From Promethearchaeota archaeon (lineage in GTDB: Archaea; Asgardarchaeota; Thorarchaeia; Thorarchaeales; Thorarchaeaceae), in NCBI GenBank assembly GCA_027031765.1, contig JALVPN010000006.1:15472-21500 (forward strand): a stretch of DNA of 6,029 nucleotides, written 5' to 3'. Position numbers and translations under genes: made by a program. Shown one piece after another: positions 1-6,029 of this stretch. Below the pieces are notes generated by a model that saw only the letters and a program-made list of their open reading frames with translations, did not search any database and was not told the origin of the DNA. Each line of letters starts with the position of its first letter. Within the stretch, counting starts at the first letter, position 1.

Positions 1-891
1 CATAAGAACAGCCAGGACAAGAGATACCATCGAGAAGAGTGCGAAGACAAACACGGTCTTGAGCAGGATGTCAGTCTTTTCTCTGTTCACTTCGGCAGAC
101 TGACACTGTGGCCTGAGCTGCTCCGCCCTGGTCCGTAGGGTGACAATCTGGCTCCGGTCGTATTCCTTCCTCTCCTCCAAGAGCTCTTCCATCCTGCGGA
201 TGCTGTTTCGAGCTTCAACAATATCGTGCCGGGCCTTGGCCCGCTCAAGTCCTTCACGACGCCGTTTCAAGTCATCGAGCTGCGCCTGTTTCTCGACCAG
301 AAATCGCTCCAACTCCTCATATTCCTCCATCTCGGGATTTCGGCAGAACTCATCAATCTCTTGGAGAAGGCCGGTGGCAAGTCTGACACGGTCTGCAAGT
401 TTTCCCTCTTCTTTGCGATTGGTCAATCGGCCTGAGGGCTTTATGCGTCCCTCGCTCCGGAGTCCCTCCATTATCTTCTCGATTTCGGCCATCCGGGCTC
501 CTGATATTCGGTCCACAAGCGTTTCGAGGTACTTCGGAGTATCGTGAGTCCGGAGATCCGAGTCTCGAATGATGAAGATGTTCCTCAGGTCATCTACTGT
601 GAGTCTAGCCTCATCCAGCTTGACCACATCAACTAGGGACTTGGAACCAGTGAGCTCTACTTCTTCGCCTCCACACTCTAAGAGCACGTAGCCGTTGGGT
701 CTTGACTCAACACGGTCGACGTCCCATCTCCGGATTCTCCGCCGTCCCAGAAGGAGCTTGATCAGTGCATCTATTGAGAGTGTCTTGCCCGACTCATTTG
801 GGCCGTAGATGAGATTGACGCCCTCCTCAAACGTGAGCCTGCGGTCTCTTACGGGCCCGTATCGGATGATGTTGAGCTCCTTCAACCTCAT
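1..891 (-). CDS. Rad50/SbcC-like (YhaN/AAA_27-type) SMC-family ATPase, N-terminal 297 codons; continues beyond the left window edge
   Basis: Manually translated; absent from the ORF track because there is no stop in the window. ATG at 891-889 overlaps the TGA of the upstream nuclease gene (ATGA). Starts MRLKELNIIRYGPVRDRRLTFEEGVNLIYGPNESGKTLSIDALIKLL, the typical SMC/Rad50 N-terminal strands plus Walker A GPNESGKT (781-804). A charged heptad-like region follows (EEYEELERFLVEKQAQLDDLKRRREGLERAKARHDIVEARNSIRRMEELLEERKEY), then hydrophobic TVFVFALFSMVSLVLAVLM (1-57). The frame is open from 891 to 1. Confidence 0.9.
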   Translation of the reverse strand, partial: MRLKELNIIRYGPVRDRRLTFEEGVNLIYGPNESGKTLSIDALIKLLLGRRRIRRWDVDRVESRPNGYVLLECGGEEVELTGSKSLVDVVKLDEARLTVDDLRNIFIIRDSDLRTHDTPKYLETLVDRISGARMAEIEKIMEGLRSEGRIKPSGRLTNRKEEGKLADRVRLATGLLQEIDEFCRNPEMEEYEELERFLVEKQAQLDDLKRRREGLERAKARHDIVEARNSIRRMEELLEERKEYDRSQIVTLRTRAEQLRPQCQSAEVNREKTDILLKTVFVFALFSMVSLVLAVLM

Positions 892-1940
892 AAGTCCAGC
901 TTCCCCTCTTCCGCCAGTCGGGACACGACCGTGAGCACCATCATATCTACCGTCTGCTTGTCGGTAATCTCGTCATCATCAAGTAGTCGCTGTTTGAACC
1001 TCTGATATATCGGGTATCGGAGGATGTTCTCTATGCCACGGACACGAAAGTCAACGGGAATTCCCCCGGCCGCCGCCTCAATCTCCTGTTTCAGCTCGGC
1101 TTCCGGCATCTCGGTGAACCCTCTGGCAATGACCCTGACATCACAGTCTTGTCCTTTGTGACGCTCGGCCCATTGTTCGACTTGCTTGACCCACGCTTTC
1201 TCTGTGCCAGGAGATATGGTGAATTCCAACTCGTCATAGTAGAATGTAGAGAGCTCTATGACTCGTGTCTTCCTGCTCGTCGTGTCAATGAGATAGGCCG
1301 ACCGCCGCCCTCGCTCCCTCCTTGTCAGAGAAACTGGTGATCCCGGGTACACGAATAGTCCTCCGTTTGCAAGCTTCTGTTCGTGCAGCCAAGAGTGAAA
1401 GTGGCCTGCTAGGATGTAGTCAAAACCGAGCCCGGCCAGCCTGGCTGAAGACACAGGCATGTAGCGAGTCGCGTCCTCTTCGCCAAAGCCACCGCTCCCG
1501 AGGCCGACATCGAGAGTGCAGTGGAGCAAGAGGATCTTGGTGCCTGCGGAACCCGATTGTTCTCGGATTCGCAGTGCTACCTCGTCGTCAAACCTCTCAC
1601 GGAATGGCACGCCCGCGATGAGGAGGTCTTCGTATTCTCTGGCAGTAACAGGCCTGTCAATCAACGTGTCGACGTCACTGCCGTAGAATGTATTCTCCGT
1701 AAAGGCTGTAGCGTCGTGGTTCCCAGGGAGGACAAGGATTTCAAAGCCGTTTCCGGATAGCAAATCTCTCAGCTGTGGCCGGAGTTCGTTTGCATCTGCG
1801 GCAGAGTCGAACATGTCGCCGGCAATCGTGACGGTGTCTGCCTTCTCTTGCCTTGCCACATCCAGGATGTGTTCGAGAGCAGCGAGGGTTCGCGGGTTGG
1901 CCGCACTGAGATGGATATCTGACGTGTGGAGTACCCTCAA
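888..1940 (-). CDS. sbcD: Mre11/SbcD-family DNA repair exonuclease (calcineurin-like metallophosphoesterase), about 350 aa
   Basis: All five phosphoesterase motifs are present: HTSDIHL, IAGDMFDS, LPGNHDA, LLLHCTL, ILAGHFH. They are followed by YPGSPVSLTRRERGRR, typical of Mre11/SbcD. The ORF track starts at ATG 1976, but TTG at 1940-1938 gives MRVLHTSDIHL, the usual N-terminus for this family, and has GAGGGG 6 nt upstream, so I prefer 1940. It is coupled to a Rad50-like ATPase. The symbol is a family-level assignment, and orthology to E. coli sbcD is not shown. Confidence 0.93.
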   Translation of the reverse strand: MRVLHTSDIHLSAANPRTLAALEHILDVARQEKADTVTIAGDMFDSAADANELRPQLRDLLSGNGFEILVLPGNHDATAFTENTFYGSDVDTLIDRPVTAREYEDLLIAGVPFRERFDDEVALRIREQSGSAGTKILLLHCTLDVGLGSGGFGEEDATRYMPVSSARLAGLGFDYILAGHFHSWLHEQKLANGGLFVYPGSPVSLTRRERGRRSAYLIDTTSRKTRVIELSTFYYDELEFTISPGTEKAWVKQVEQWAERHKGQDCDVRVIARGFTEMPEAELKQEIEAAAGGIPVDFRVRGIENILRYPIYQRFKQRLLDDDEITDKQTVDMMVLTVVSRLAEEGKLDL

Positions 1941-1946
1941 AGATGA

Positions 1947-1952
1947 CCCCTC
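1947..1952 (-). promoter_or_regulatory. Shine-Dalgarno-like site (GAGGGG) for the TTG start of the SbcD-like gene
   Basis: The minus strand reads GAGGGG-TCATCT-TTG-AGG-GTA-CTC-CAC, a 6 nt spacing. Confidence 0.55.
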
Positions 1953-2094
1953 AAACAATGTATGCGCATCAGGCATTTAGACGTTTTGGCACAAAGCCAG
2001 TACCATGTCCGTCGAAGCCTCGGGGCTGCTAGTCGCGTCACGCTCGACGCCGGTGGACTCTCACCCCGGGGCCTCTCGGCATACGAAATCAGTT

Positions 2095-2122
2095 TTGCCC
2101 AATAGGGTTTGTTTGGTAAGAT
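2095..2122 (+). promoter_or_regulatory. Candidate sigma70-type promoter facing ago (TTGCCC-N16-TAAGAT with extended -10 TG)
   Basis: TTGCCC at 2095-2100, TG at 2114-2115 and TAAGAT at 2117-2122, in a locally AT-richer patch. This is a consensus match only, and it lies about 555 nt upstream of the ago start. Confidence 0.3.
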
Positions 2123-2128
2123 ATTGGG
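2098..2128. repeat. Perfect 7-bp inverted repeat CCCAATA-N17-TATTGGG, possible operator
   Basis: CCCAATA (2098-2104) and TATTGGG (2122-2128) are exact reverse complements and overlap the -35 and -10 boxes of the candidate promoter. The repeat is certain, but its function is inferred. Confidence 0.4.
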
Positions 2129-2163
2129 AATTGTAGTCGAAAGAACCTTACCCAGATACTGTC

Positions 2164-2192
2164 TTGACGTAGTGACGGGGCTATGGTTCAAT
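2164..2192 (+). promoter_or_regulatory. Second candidate sigma70-type promoter (TTGACG-N17-TTCAAT with extended -10 TG)
   Basis: TTGACG at 2164-2169, a 17-nt spacer, TG at 2184-2185 and TTCAAT at 2187-2192. The -10 lacks the conserved A at position 2, so support is weak. Confidence 0.25.
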
Positions 2193-2663
2193 CAGCTTGA
2201 CTATGTGTGTGACGATTCCTTCGGCTGTACTGCAGCCGCGTCCTTGTTGTTCAGCTTGCCTGAGAGTTTCCTCAATCGCAGCATCTCGACTCCAGCGTTT
2301 CTCTTCGTTCCGTAGTCCTTGCGCTACTGCTCCACTATAGAGTCGAAAAGGTCGCCGCCGACTTCATGACTGTTCACTCAAGGTTGGTCTGAAGACAGGC
2401 ATACATCGAAGTGACCGTGGGAATCAAGCGCGCAGGAGTTAACCACACTGAAACGCAAGTCGGGCATGCGGAATGGCCTCAACGACCACCCCCAGATTTC
2501 ACCATCAGAATGAACGGCATAGGATTCCTGCTTGCACGGAAGGTAGACAGAACAGCCAGTAGCTAAGGCATTGCATTGCGCACCTTCCCAACGACTCGTC
2601 TGGGCCGAGTGAAAATGAGATATCAGTTGGTGGTTTCACATAGGCAGTCATCAGACCAATGCC

Positions 2664-2669
2664 AGGAGG
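2664..2669 (+). promoter_or_regulatory. Shine-Dalgarno site of ago (AGGAGG)
   Basis: AGGAGG lies 8 nt upstream of ATG 2678. Confidence 0.8.
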
Positions 2670-2677
2670 CAAGATAG

Positions 2678-4771
2678 ATGACGTATGCCTTCGCTGAGGT
2701 GTTTCCGCTTCAGACTGAAACATTCCCTCCCCTGCAAGCATTTCGCCCCATTGTCAGGGGATTCGAGGAGCAACTGATTGGTGGCAAGCTTGCATACCAC
2801 CTGTCCAGGACGACCGGTGGGCATTGGGTCTGGACAGGCGACCATCTACTGACGGACTGTCCCATATCGCGGCATGAGCTGACAGGGTTGCTCTCGGAGC
2901 TATGGCACAGTCACCCAGAAGTCTACGGGCATCTCGAAGATATCCGCCAGAATCCGGACTATCGGCCATCTCCCATTGCATTGGCAAAGGTCGGAGCGTT
3001 CGGGTTCTCAAAGGATTACACGAAGATGATACGCACAATCCTGTCCAAGGAGCGTAGTGACTTCGGTTCAGTCTATGTCGACCGAGTTCACAACATAGCA
3101 CCACTCGTAGTCAAGGGTACTCCGTGTCTGTCGATTTCGGTCTCGTCACACATTGTGCTGAAAGACGATGCCTACGAGTACCTTAGGACTCGTCCTGACC
3201 CCTCAGAGATAAAGGGCAAATGGGTGAGAGACAAGTATTCCGGCTTCAAGGGCGAGGTCGTCGATGTTGTGGGGAGTCTGGAAAGGCACCGCGAAAGACT
3301 CCTTTCTCTTGCAACAAACGAATCGACTCGGGAAGCTCTAAGGAAGAGTAGCGACAATGTCCCCGTCGTGCGGGTTGGTCGCGAGGGATACGACTATGCG
3401 GTAACTTGCCTTGATATCATTCTACGGATGGAGTACATTGACGAGTTTGGAATCGACGCTTCTAGGGCTCAGCGCGTCCTGAGGATTGCGCCGCCGGACA
3501 GGTGGAGGATTGTGCTCGGGATAGCAAGGTACCTCAGGATGGAAAGGCTGATTCGATGGGAATGCGGCTCCTACAGGCAGCCTGATGTCTTTCTTGGCCT
3601 CTCGTCCTTGGGCGTTAGGCCGAATGTCAGGTTGGGTGATGGCAAGGTCGTGCCTCACGACACGCGGATTCTGCATCACTTGAAGGAACACGGACTCTAC
3701 AGAGTGGCACCAGAGTTCTCTCAGGGGTCACCCATTAGGGTTGGCATTCTTGACTCGACTCGTGAGCCATCGGTTCAGGATTTCGTGAAACGTCTGGAGC
3801 ATGAGGTCACCAGTCTAGGAATCCGTTTTCAGGTCACCGGGGAGCAGTATGTCACGGGCGGATCCCGATACAATCTTGAGCACGCCATTGACAAACTCTC
3901 AGCAGACGGTGTCGACCTTGCACTGGGATTCTTCCACAGTGGCCACGACTACTACCAGTTCAAGCAGCTGACCGTGGGAAGAGGAATTGCTAGCCAGTTT
4001 GTGCTCGCCGACACTATGCGCAACAGATACGCCATGCCCAATGTCGTCCTAGGAATAGTTGGAAAGACCGGTAGTATCCCGTACGTCTTGGAAAAGCCCC
4101 TTGAGTACGCAGATGTTGTCGTGGGGATTGATATTGCCCGAAGGCCCAAGGAGAGGCTCGACGGTAGCGTAAACGTGGCGGCCGTCGCCCGAATATATCT
4201 CAGCAATGGGGAGTTTGTGAAGTACGTCCTTCACGATGAACCGATTGATGGAGAAACTCTTCCGCCCGAGCTGCTGCAGAACATGTTTCCTTCCAGCGAG
4301 TTTGGCGGAAAACGGGTAGTCATTCACCGCGATGGCCTGTGGAGAGGAAAGGAGAAGCGCATTCTTGTGGACTGGGCAGAAGAGATAGGGGCAACATTTC
4401 ATCTCGTCGAAGTGATCAAGTCAGGGGCACCACGGCTGTACTCCTGCAGGTCTTTCGAGAGAGGACCGGACGGAGTCGGTCAACCAGAGAAGGGCACCAC
4501 CCTGAAGCTGAGCCCCCGCGAGGCCATAATTGCCTCTACCCCGCCTTCTTCTGACAATGCAACAACTAGACCCCTCAGAATCAGGACGGAATCCAGCCTG
4601 ACAATCGAGGAGGCCCTCCATTCGGTAATGTCCATGACCCTCCTTCACTATGGTTCGGTCCGCCAGCCGAGGCTACCTGTGACGGTCCACTACAGCGACG
4701 AGATAGCAGGACTGGCCCTCATGGGCGTGAAACCAAGGGATTTGGTCGGTAAGAAACTGTACTGGTTGTGA
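2678..4771 (+). CDS. ago: Long (N-L1-PAZ-L2-MID-PIWI) prokaryotic Argonaute, predicted catalytically active (long-A type), 697 aa
   Basis: PIWI motifs: VVVGIDIA (D485), PIDGETLP (E526), RVVIHRDG (D552), VEVIKSGAPRLY, and RLPVTVHYSDEIA (D674), giving a DEDD tetrad. MID pocket: Y425-x3-K429, SQ440 and GK463, plus N455. It has a PAZ-like region (KGKWVRDKYSGFKGEVVDVVG...VVRVGREGYDYAV), a hydrophobic C-terminus (KKLYWL) and a strong RBS. Confidence 0.97.
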   Translation: MTYAFAEVFPLQTETFPPLQAFRPIVRGFEEQLIGGKLAYHLSRTTGGHWVWTGDHLLTDCPISRHELTGLLSELWHSHPEVYGHLEDIRQNPDYRPSPIALAKVGAFGFSKDYTKMIRTILSKERSDFGSVYVDRVHNIAPLVVKGTPCLSISVSSHIVLKDDAYEYLRTRPDPSEIKGKWVRDKYSGFKGEVVDVVGSLERHRERLLSLATNESTREALRKSSDNVPVVRVGREGYDYAVTCLDIILRMEYIDEFGIDASRAQRVLRIAPPDRWRIVLGIARYLRMERLIRWECGSYRQPDVFLGLSSLGVRPNVRLGDGKVVPHDTRILHHLKEHGLYRVAPEFSQGSPIRVGILDSTREPSVQDFVKRLEHEVTSLGIRFQVTGEQYVTGGSRYNLEHAIDKLSADGVDLALGFFHSGHDYYQFKQLTVGRGIASQFVLADTMRNRYAMPNVVLGIVGKTGSIPYVLEKPLEYADVVVGIDIARRPKERLDGSVNVAAVARIYLSNGEFVKYVLHDEPIDGETLPPELLQNMFPSSEFGGKRVVIHRDGLWRGKEKRILVDWAEEIGATFHLVEVIKSGAPRLYSCRSFERGPDGVGQPEKGTTLKLSPREAIIASTPPSSDNATTRPLRIRTESSLTIEEALHSVMSMTLLHYGSVRQPRLPVTVHYSDEIAGLALMGVKPRDLVGKKLYWL

Positions 4772-4797
4772 CATCTGCAGTGTGTGTCAGATGTTTG
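4771..4797 (+). terminator. Possible weak intrinsic terminator or stem-loop immediately after the ago stop
   Basis: ACATCTG (4771-4777) and CAGATGT (4788-4794) form a perfect 7-bp stem with a 10-nt loop, followed by only a short T run. The loop is long and the U tract poor, so termination would be leaky at best. Confidence 0.3.
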
Positions 4798-4936
4798 ACA
4801 TGTACAGGGTTGCCGTAGCCATCTGCTGATGGAAACCACGGTGGAATGACCATACATCTGGGACAATAGAGTGCGCCACATTGCGAGGTCAAGGAGTGTA
4901 TGTGAACACGCAACAGTAATATGATGCAATGACTGC

Positions 4937-4942
4937 GGAGGT
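4937..4942 (+). promoter_or_regulatory. Shine-Dalgarno site (GGAGGT) for the ORF starting at 4949
   Basis: GGAGGT lies 6 nt upstream of ATG 4949. A second GGAGGT at 4969-4974 precedes an alternative in-frame ATG at 4988. Confidence 0.6.
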
Positions 4943-4956
4943 GGGTGCATGCACCC
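4943..4956. repeat. Perfect 14-bp palindrome GGGTGCATGCACCC overlapping the predicted start codon
   Basis: The sequence equals its own reverse complement and contains ATG 4949-4951. Confidence 0.5.
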
Positions 4957-6029
4957 TAGACTGGAGAGGGAGGTGCAACCTGTCAGAATGGACTCTGTTA
5001 CAGTCACGAATCGCAAGAGGTTGCTGAGGATTTGGAGAGTACTCGCGGCCCTTGACCACATGCGCTGGAACGAGCAGTCCTACGTCCCGTTGATTAACTA
5101 CTGCTGCAATGGGCTTACGGACGACCAGAAGCTCCTCACGCATTACTTGTGCTACATAACAGACCGGATGACAAACACTAGGCCCGTCTGGGAGGTCGGT
5201 GGCTACGTTGTTTCTCACATTGTATGCCGGTATGCATCTCGCAAGGACAACGATGTATGGGTGGATGTGCTGGAGCCTCACGTCAAAAAGGGGGACAGCG
5301 GCAGCTCTGGGACTAAGGGAGGTGATCCTGCTAAGATTCGGCTTTGCGCCCCGCCACCGGGGAAAACAAACCCGCGACTGCGTCGATTGGGCAGAGAGGA
5401 GTCAAATGTGGAGTACTCATCGCGCTTCATGAAGGAAGACTTGCTGAGGATCTACCGGACGCTGCTATATCTGGACCAGCACCACGGACGAAGATTTGGC
5501 AACTTCCTGCGGAGCGTCCTAGAAGAAGCAGACTCAAAGCATGGGTCGACTGTAGCCCGCGGGATTGAAGGGATGGCGGTTCTCCTCAGTAAGCTGACCT
5601 ATGACGAGTTGCCCCTGAAGACTGGTGCAACCTTTGAAGAGCAGAAGGATGCAATCAAAGGGCAGATAGAAGCCCTTGACTTTGACTTCGATTACGAGCG
5701 ATTCAGAGTGCGCTTCAAGCGAAAACGCCTCTGGTGCTCCATCCGTGACTATCTCAAGTCAGCCGAGTTCAACGGCGTGTTCGTACGAGCACTTAGGTCA
5801 GCGGGCTACTCCGACTGGGAGAAGTGGCATAGGGACTCTAGAGAGCTGCAGGAGGGGCTTTGGGTTCTAGAGCTCCCAGGTGACATATGGAACAATTCGC
5901 CGGAGCTCAGGCACGGCTTGATGGAGCCCTGCCTGTCTGTCCACAGAAAGTCTTGGAAAATGCCCAGAATAGTGCGTGAGGCATACAGTTGTCTTGACAA
6001 CGGTAATGACGACATGCAAGGTCTATACC
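4949..6029 (+). CDS. Hypothetical protein (at least 360 codons, truncated by the right edge); tentatively an HhH-GPD/AGOG-like DNA glycosylase fold
   Basis: Manually translated; absent from the ORF track because there is no stop in the window. The frame is open from an in-frame TGA at 4922-4924 to the window end: MHPRLEREVQPVRMDSVTVTNRKRLLRIWRVLAALDHMRWNEQSYVPLINYCCNGLTDDQKLLTHYLCYITDRMTNTRPVWEVGGYVVSHIV...YSSRFMKEDLLRIYRTL...RFKRKRLWCSIRDYLKS...LWVLELPGDIWNNSPELRHGLM.... It has a good RBS and a globular, helix-rich composition. The coding call is firm. The fold call rests only on remembered motif resemblance (about 0.3 confidence). Confidence 0.85.
   Translation, partial: MHPRLEREVQPVRMDSVTVTNRKRLLRIWRVLAALDHMRWNEQSYVPLINYCCNGLTDDQKLLTHYLCYITDRMTNTRPVWEVGGYVVSHIVCRYASRKDNDVWVDVLEPHVKKGDSGSSGTKGGDPAKIRLCAPPPGKTNPRLRRLGREESNVEYSSRFMKEDLLRIYRTLLYLDQHHGRRFGNFLRSVLEEADSKHGSTVARGIEGMAVLLSKLTYDELPLKTGATFEEQKDAIKGQIEALDFDFDYERFRVRFKRKRLWCSIRDYLKSAEFNGVFVRALRSAGYSDWEKWHRDSRELQEGLWVLELPGDIWNNSPELRHGLMEPCLSVHRKSWKMPRIVREAYSCLDNGNDDMQGLY

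Follow-up and report, generated by a model that had tools for sequence, protein, structure and literature searches.

The window analysed here, a 6,029-nucleotide stretch of DNA, is the final 6 kb of the 21.5-kb contig C6 (positions 15472-21500) of G000, a metagenome-assembled genome (MAG; 2.95 Mb, 95% complete) from an Asgard archaeon. It encodes a prokaryotic Argonaute (pAgo), a nuclease and an ABC ATPase whose genes form a pair divergent from the pAgo gene, and a further gene downstream of pAgo, ORF4949. We see an even chance that the pAgo and the pair form a two-part partnership, in which the pair, predicted to be membrane anchored, would process DNA ends. A first, sequence-only reading had proposed a multi-component pAgo system with a glycosylase as a third part; the partnership of pAgo and pair is plausible, and the glycosylase is the part of that proposal that is not supported. 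All four reading frames of the window were confirmed as they had been described, each encoding a DNA-acting protein.

Linkage of the pair to Argonautes

We assembled about 124 pAgo loci (39 from genomes, 80 from metagenomes and 5 by exact look-up) and searched their open reading frames (ORFs) by profile for the nuclease family, for the ATPase and for the ORF4949 family. A tree was computed from 104 pAgos; of its 103 retrieved loci, 71 are flanked on one side by 3 kb or more. Only two pAgos were more than 51% identical to that of the window, those of loci L051 (59.5%) and L052 (57.4%), and the three form a clade with 100% support and a long stem. Both loci have the layout of the window (ATPase<-nuclease, 0.3 kb, pAgo->). 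The pair adjoins pAgo in all three members of this sub-clade, at a distance of 0.3 to 0.7 kb, so that its pAgos have so far always been found with the pair (n = 3 loci). In none of the three do pAgo and the pair form a same-strand operon, all being divergent. Nuclease identities among the loci (61%, 57.5% and 57.4%) mirror those of the pAgos (59.5%, 57.4% and 60.1%). The genes downstream of pAgo are unrelated across the three loci, and those of L051 and L052 lie on the opposite strand. Because this flank differs and the island rearranges fast, the kept adjacency of pAgo and pair is informative.

Enzymes of similar type were found beside other pAgos. The nearest outgroup pAgo, a Thorarchaeota fragment with 50% identity to that of the window (L160 1-2615, JBHLRI010000658.1), is followed after 48 bp, on a short contig, by a NurA gene (24.8 bits versus a cut-off of 21, with the whole profile covered). 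Seven pAgos (30-32% identity) that form a well-supported clade have the arrangement pAgo->NurA-like->HerA->Mre11-Rad50. Within it, an Mre11-type phosphoesterase is fused to a Rad50-like ATPase (~1190 aa) in L137 9626-18427 and L139 644-9532, and Mre11 and Rad50 are separate genes in L130; the NurA-like proteins of L137 and L139 are 356 aa long with no Pfam match, and intergenic gaps are below 100 bp. The pAgos of L138 and L071 (42% identity) have a divergent NurA-HerA-Mre11-Rad50 operon. The Mre11/Rad50 modules of these other clades are at most 26-30% identical to the window pair and have other gene orders. Since they are non-orthologous and differently ordered, the association between pAgo and end resection arose several times. 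The expectation that a pAgo beside a nuclease/ATPase would recur was borne out, in all three members of the sub-clade by the pair itself and in other pAgo clades by Mre11/Rad50/NurA/HerA genes that are not its orthologues.

The Rhodothermales locus L041 (pAgo->unknown->Mre11->SbcC-like) was considered as a carrier of an orthologous pair and rejected: its proteins are 26-30% identical, its ATPase is longer, and its sister locus L038 lacks the pair. We regard L041 as a weak, separate case. Another conserved gene set was also seen, in L091 (3075-12127), L093, L115 and L032. There, a pAgo 35-38% identical to that of the window is immediately preceded, on its own strand, by genes for a DNA methylase, two small unknowns, an IrrE/M78-like protein, a 402-aa unknown and a HerA-type ATPase; in L025, a C5-methylase, HerA and a 717-aa unknown are encoded ahead of pAgo.

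The serious rival to a partnership is chance co-location in a defence island, in which an autonomous pair and a stand-alone pAgo would have shared a hotspot and been co-inherited for a while. This may well have happened, although we hold it to be somewhat less than evenly probable. Several findings speak for it and weigh against the partnership. The pair occurs without a pAgo of the window clade in 10 of the 11 Asgard genomes that carry it, G004 (see below) included, where it stands beside an OLD nuclease, a 1538-aa unknown, TnpB and others; the caveat in the sequence-only reading that such pairs occur on their own was justified. The pair is clearly able to work alone, and therefore the Argonaute is an add-on to the pair and not the reverse. 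Related pAgos are mostly stand-alone, about 100 related loci (30-54% identity) lacking the pair and 85 of the 104 tree-placed loci lacking any Mre11/Rad50/NurA/HerA-type neighbour. The linkage check proposed in that reading thus gave a divided answer, the pair being present throughout the sub-clade and missing from the wider set.

The linked loci, moreover, number three, two of them from one metagenome. The three near-equal distances among them fit co-inheritance and transfer alike. The genes are divergent and do not form an operon, a recombination scar lies between the pair and pAgo, and C6, of lower GC content than the genome (54% versus 59%) and with RAMP and AAA_15/21 genes upstream of the window, is a defence island, where unrelated systems cluster. 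Two observations argue against chance. In all three loci the adjacency has survived about 40% divergence of the proteins, although the other flank has changed; and in at least four other lineages pAgos have beside them functionally equivalent end-resection genes that are not orthologues of the pair, in some cases in tight co-directional operons.

The scar was revealed by comparison with G004, a relative of the same family and a different genus, whose nuclease is 86% identical. Window positions 1-2411 align with G004 L061 11109-8697 at 78.7% nucleotide identity (blastn). An intact OLD-family gene is located 199 bp upstream of the G004 nuclease gene, on the same strand, and its protein has the Pfam domains AAA_15, AAA_21 and OLD-like_TOPRIM in one intact frame. 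With that protein as a query, tblastn matched window positions 2187-2418 in shifted frames (49-71% identity). The remnant has three frame-breaking deletions (5, 4 and 4 nt), and homology to G004 stops at ~2420. An intact ABC ATPase plus TOPRIM frame is not present at 2173-2420, where only about 80 end codons are left. The scar and the breakpoint show that the present junction between pAgo and pair arose when a deletion or insertion removed most of an OLD gene and left it dead, which counts against the partnership. The 0.7-kb gap had been described as lying between divergent genes, which is correct, but it is not a clean promoter region, as it holds this pseudogene.

No pAgo was found in G004 by a genome-wide profile search, and tblastn beside its OLD gene gave only E>0.2. 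Rfam gave no match on the window, a repeat search of the spacer returned short chance repeats only, and the spacer has no nucleotide similarity to those of L051 and L052. A complex prediction for full-length pAgo and nuclease residues 1-300, both supplied as alignments and run without controls, scored 0.00 and carries no weight either way.

The Argonaute and the nuclease/ATPase pair

The PADLOC pAgo model matched the Argonaute over its full length (627 bits; model positions 4-683 of 683 matched by residues 5-697), which indicates a full-length N-PAZ-MID-PIWI architecture. Pfam Piwi was matched at 1.7e-17, and the nearest structures in the Protein Data Bank (PDB) are the Argonautes 9iad_A (3e-63) and 1yvu of Aquifex aeolicus (1e-37). 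The putative catalytic tetrad, D485/E526/D552/D674, aligns to the Aquifex Argonaute motifs; among 30 homologues, the first three residues are invariant and D674 is at least 90% conserved. Its glutamate is best assigned, by position and invariance alone, to E526 of a G-E motif. E512 (in GEFVKY) was considered as the glutamate finger and dropped in favor of the invariant E526. With the YKQTNK-type motif as the reference for the 5'-phosphate pocket of the MID domain (PMC6299218), Y425, K429, Q440 and N455 were found to be invariant and K463 at least 90% conserved in the same homologues. The protein is classified from these features as a long-A pAgo and is predicted to be cutting-competent, in line with the DEDD tetrad that had been read as intact.

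A pAgo remnant was seen in another genome of the same family, G011. At C60 5584-5790 (L003 1498-1689, minus strand), all that is left of a pAgo of this type is 63-72 codons of its C terminus, 67% identical to residues 629-697. The genes around it are unrelated ones for membrane and metabolic functions, which points to the loss of a pAgo in the past.

The nuclease gene lies upstream of the ATPase gene and overlaps its start by 4 nt, the two being translationally coupled. The nuclease has 362 aa, or 350 aa if an internal start codon is used. Its calcineurin-type phosphoesterase motifs I-VI are complete, with Pfam Metallophos above its cut-off, and the metal-binding motifs (D20/H22, G53-D54, G85-N86-H87, H152 and G191-H192-x-H194) show little or no variation among 40 homologues. 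In NCBIfam, SbcD/Mre11 models match best, but none of them reaches its cut-off; the highest score is that of TIGR00619 sbcd (49.4 bits versus 77.65), and all Mre11 models score far lower.

The N-terminal half of the ATPase (window 1-891) matched Pfam AAA_27 (50.3 bits versus a cut-off of 22) and AAA_23, and has a Walker A motif (GPNESGKT) and a coiled coil. The gene (C6 14345-16362) runs past the window and across a 10-N scaffold gap to C6 14345. Beyond the gap, the C-terminal half (371 aa) has the ABC signature LSRGATDQ and the Walker B motif FFVMDDPF. Both halves are matched by single proteins of 650-667 aa in other loci; therefore, the ATPase is one gene, with a full-size product of about 670 aa, within a range of 650-680 aa. 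A full-length homologue also matched SMC_N and AAA_23.

The N-terminal half ends, and the C-terminal half starts, with a hydrophobic helix, and one or two strongly hydrophobic 19-mers are present mid-protein in 10/10 full-length homologues checked. This is the place that the zinc hook occupies in Rad50. The Pfam model of that CxxC hook, Rad50_zn_hook, was unmatched in the ATPase and anywhere in G000. A predicted transmembrane hairpin would thus take the place of the hook, and the ATPase would be membrane anchored.

Both proteins of the pair score far below every NCBIfam Mre11/SbcD/Rad50 cut-off. AAA_27 above its cut-off, a hydrophobic centre and a nuclease gene directly upstream are all features of the SbcE/YhaN-like class. 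Judged by AAA_27 and by the published description of SbcE, the pair is best described as a putative short-armed archaeal analogue of SbcF/SbcE (YhaO/YhaN) of Bacillus. The pair had been called Mre11/Rad50-like; it is indeed a nuclease and an ATPase with the corresponding motifs, although closer to SbcF/SbcE.

The nuclease and ATPase genes are adjacent in 12/12 loci, whereas the neighbours of the pair vary. A rival account holds that the pair is a housekeeping nuclease for the repair of double-strand breaks beside which a pAgo landed. We consider this very improbable. It draws on the annotation of nuclease homologues as 'DNA repair exonuclease' and on the role of Bacillus SbcEF in break repair (PMC2811018). 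However, the pair lies on a low-GC island, and we found it in no more than 11 of the phylum's 400 genomes, which makes it accessory, and in 5 of the 85 others in the host's family. In addition, G000 has a separate pair at C3 379-2383, a 447-aa Metallophos protein followed by a same-strand Rad50-like N terminus that runs off the contig start. This Mre11 and Rad50-like protein are likely the housekeeping Mre11-Rad50 of G000.

In two other genomes, a large protein without a Pfam family precedes the pair on the same strand. It has 1538 aa in G001 (L063 2421-8969), where a TnpB/Cas12f-like gene adjoins, and at least 591 aa in G021 (L062 10504-12279). These proteins may be alternative partners of the pair.

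The downstream gene and the island

The features of the window are collected in Table 1.

TABLE 1 Positions, strands and supporting matches of the features of the window
Feature	Position	Strand	Basis
SbcE/YhaN-like (Rad50-like) ABC ATPase, N-terminal 297 codons	1..891	-	Pfam AAA_27, AAA_23
SbcD/Mre11/SbcF-like metallophosphoesterase nuclease, 362 aa	888..1976	-	Pfam Metallophos 6.7e-15
Region upstream of the nuclease gene, homologous to the G004 OLD-SbcD intergenic region	1977..2172	.	blastn
Scar of an OLD-family nuclease pseudogene, ~80 last codons	2173..2420	-	tblastn and nucleotide alignment
~255 bp upstream of pAgo, without counterpart in G004; presumed pAgo promoter region	2421..2677	+	
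Long-A pAgo, 697 aa	2678..4771	+	Pfam Piwi, PADLOC pAgo, PDB Argonautes
ORF4949, first 360 codons, HhH-GPD-fold family	4949..6029	+	frame cut by contig end

The contig end cuts off the last ~60-90 residues of ORF4949, whose full length would be about 420-450 aa. Its likely true start is M13 at 4985. It begins 177-213 bp downstream of pAgo, on the same strand. We found 81 homologues, of about 405-430 aa, in Thorarchaeota, Planctomycetota, Verrucomicrobiota and Syntrophales; Pfam recognizes no domain in any of them. ORF4949 itself had no match in Pfam, NCBIfam, PADLOC, PDB sequence or PDB profile searches, and 0/40 family members matched Pfam HhH-GPD, AGOG, DUF2400 or Q_salvage at E<=1. The conserved motifs of the family are LLTHWLCYITDR, KRLWCSxRDYLKS, LELPGDVWNN and YPEQLDVTFDFVPRMC, followed by eight conserved cysteines in a region missing from the window copy. 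By eye, the invariant L-P-G-D, the nearly invariant D345 and D349 of DVTFDF and the eight cysteines were assigned as a candidate helix-hairpin-helix, catalytic aspartate and Fe-S loop, respectively.

The fold was assessed with an AlphaFold2 (AF2) model of P0008, a homologue 42% identical to ORF4949 (predicted local distance difference test score, 91). Among 48,161 chains, the first 22 places all went to the HhH-GPD superfamily (Z 10.5-5.3, 171-235 residues aligned), with Qng1/DUF2419 at 10.5, endonuclease III at 10.1 and 9.5 and AGOG at 9.2, the others including NTHL1, MIG, ROS1, MutY, MagIII, OGG1 and AlkA. Language-model neighbours of ORF4949 were labelled HhH-GPD, DUF2400 'iron-sulfur cluster loop', AGOG and Q_salvage. 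A Foldseek search of the PDB found nothing at E<=0.001, just weak DUF2419/AGOG rows, and an Atlas fold search returned the ORF4949 family alone. The family is predicted from the model to have an HhH-GPD glycosylase-type fold, so that the label 'glycosylase-like' appears right at the level of the fold, and the product is probably a base-excision or modified-base N-glycosylase.

Such a fold invites the three-component system of the sequence-only reading, in which the glycosylase would make a lesion, the SbcCD-like complex would resect it and pAgo would load the guides. The position of ORF4949 close behind pAgo and on its strand agrees with this, as does its absence from 85 other genomes of the host's family, which makes it, like the pair, an acquired gene. 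Against it, the ORF4949 family was found within 10 kb of none of the ~124 other pAgo loci, and none of three ORF4949 homologue contexts (a Thorarchaeota contig, a defence island and glycoside-hydrolase genes) contained a pAgo. The downstream gene differs in all three sub-clade loci, being unrelated and on the opposite strand in L051 and L052, and G000 has a second copy of ORF4949 on another contig of normal GC content. We therefore judge the three-component system to be highly unlikely; ORF4949 is a chance, separately acquired neighbour and no part of the pAgo system.

That second copy (C95 2-523, L007) is 78% identical in nucleotides and 74% in amino acids over the overlap; it starts mid-gene at the start of C95, a 4.8-kb contig with the genome-typical GC content of 59%. 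At the end of C6 the two copies are identical over ~17 nt, GCAAGGTCTATACC, and the paralogy may have broken the assembly there. Among the ORF4949 homologues, the bacterial P0020 lies in a dense island of DNA-acting genes (L009 1-21236) with HIRAN, WYL, RmuC, NOV_C, NucS-like, GIY-YIG, REase-ARP, HNH and PLD genes, and P0046 lies among glycoside hydrolases.

Further left on C6, positions 1058-13573 encode RAMP-superfamily proteins of 299, 339 and 408 aa, AAA_15/AAA_21 ATPases of 699 and 615 aa, and one protein of 960 aa that has no Pfam match. Together they may form a defence cluster, either CRISPR type III-like or RAMP-containing. With these genes upstream of it, the window is set in a defence island and is best explained as the right-hand end of a horizontally acquired, low-GC island of this kind in a Thorarchaeota-like Asgard archaeon; close homologues bear NCBI names of Candidatus Thorarchaeota. 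Two of the island's genes, for the 615-aa ATPase and its 154-aa neighbour, have counterparts close to the pair of G004 (75% and 59% identity), in a different order.

Proposed function and comparison with known systems

In the partnership that we propose, the membrane-anchored nuclease/ATPase would engage the ends, free or blocked, of DNA that is entering the cell or has been broken, and the complex would degrade the engaged DNA into short 5'-phosphorylated pieces. The Argonaute would load these pieces as guides and cut complementary invader DNA, and the new ends would return to the nuclease. To our knowledge, archaea have neither RecBCD nor AddAB. The role of the pair would be that of RecBCD/AddAB for CbAgo-type pAgos and of the Cas4-family ACE1 for cyanobacterial pAgos.

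More generally, and tentatively, since we put it a little short of an even chance, long-A pAgos in lineages without RecBCD/AddAB may repeatedly have recruited a private, interchangeable DNA-end-resection machine, the Asgard version being membrane anchored and its guides made at the point of DNA entry. Such machines are SbcEF-like here, and NurA, NurA-HerA-Mre11-Rad50 or Mre11-Rad50 fusions in other pAgo loci. If this were true, the making of guides from DNA entering the cell would offer a spatial basis for discrimination between foreign and self. Where guides come from, and why invaders are preferred, has been worked out only for bacteria that have RecBCD/AddAB and, in part, for cyanobacteria that have ACE1. 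For archaea, the sub-clade with the pair makes the question directly testable, because three genes alone need expression, and so do the sister clades with NurA/HerA/Mre11/Rad50 sets.

We found no description in the literature of pAgo systems with Mre11, Rad50, SbcD, HerA or NurA. Mre11, Rad50, SbcC, HerA-type partners and NurA are unmentioned in two surveys of pAgo gene contexts (PMC6299218, PMC2743648), and the paper on the APACE1 system names only "helicases, phosphatases, phospholipases, and nucleases" (PMC12094033). The theme of a pAgo with an accessory nuclease is known; new here is the SbcEF-like version, with its predicted membrane anchor. The analysis also yielded two by-products, a putative short-armed, membrane-anchored archaeal relative of Bacillus SbcEF and an unannotated family of ~410 aa, with a predicted HhH-GPD fold and eight conserved cysteines, in Planctomycetota, Verrucomicrobiota and Asgard archaea.

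The predicted fold of that family matches the HhH-GPD enzymes first and exclusively (endonuclease III/MutY with a 4Fe-4S loop, AGOG, Qng1/DUF2419 and DUF2400). As candidate counterparts of their features, it has a hairpin-like motif (LPGD), a conserved aspartate (in DVTFDF) and a C-terminal cysteine cluster. Unlike them, it is ~200 aa larger, has eight rather than four conserved cysteines and an insertion between the hairpin and the aspartate, and is recognized by no sequence model.

The pair has two sets of relatives. In Bacillus subtilis, SbcE (YhaN) is an SMC-like protein without CxxC and with a hydrophobic, insoluble central domain; its gene adjoins that of the SbcD-like nuclease YhaO/SbcF, and the two act in the repair of double-strand breaks and at the pole where DNA is taken up (PMC2811018). 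The window pair shares the order of nuclease then ATPase, AAA_27, the lack of a CxxC hook and a hydrophobic centre between coiled-coil arms. In contrast, SbcE has 963 aa and is conserved in Gram-positive bacteria, whereas the window ATPase is shorter, with much shorter coiled coils and sequence similarity in the heads alone, and the pair is sporadic and on an island. With Mre11-Rad50/SbcCD, the pair has in common the enzyme superfamilies and the coupling of nuclease and ATPase. It differs from Mre11-Rad50 and the archaeal herA-mre11-rad50-nurA operon in having neither zinc hook, HerA nor NurA and, instead, a predicted transmembrane hairpin; genuine NurA-HerA-Mre11-Rad50 sets are found beside pAgos of other clades.

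The Argonaute resembles the stand-alone long-A pAgos CbAgo and TtAgo in its DEDX tetrad, its YK-type 5'-phosphate pocket and its full-length architecture, and by analogy it would be expected to carry out DNA-guided DNA interference with guides from processed double-strand ends. CbAgo draws its guides from breaks that I-SceI or SbcCD introduces and RecBCD then processes (10.1101/2020.03.01.971358). In contrast to CbAgo and TtAgo, the pAgo here has an archaeal host, and end processing would fall to the product of a next-door gene rather than to a housekeeping complex.

The APACE1 system makes a further comparison. There, the Cas4-family ACE1 binds a cyanobacterial pAgo and is proposed to process (trim) guides, although it is dispensable (PMC12094033). 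In both cases an active long-A pAgo, here a predicted one, is encoded together with a nuclease of DNA-repair type in hosts without RecBCD/AddAB. The window partner is a metallophosphoesterase with a predicted membrane-anchored ABC ATPase and not a PD-(D/E)xK nuclease. The genes, unlike those of APACE1, are divergent rather than in one operon, and the partner is common without pAgo.

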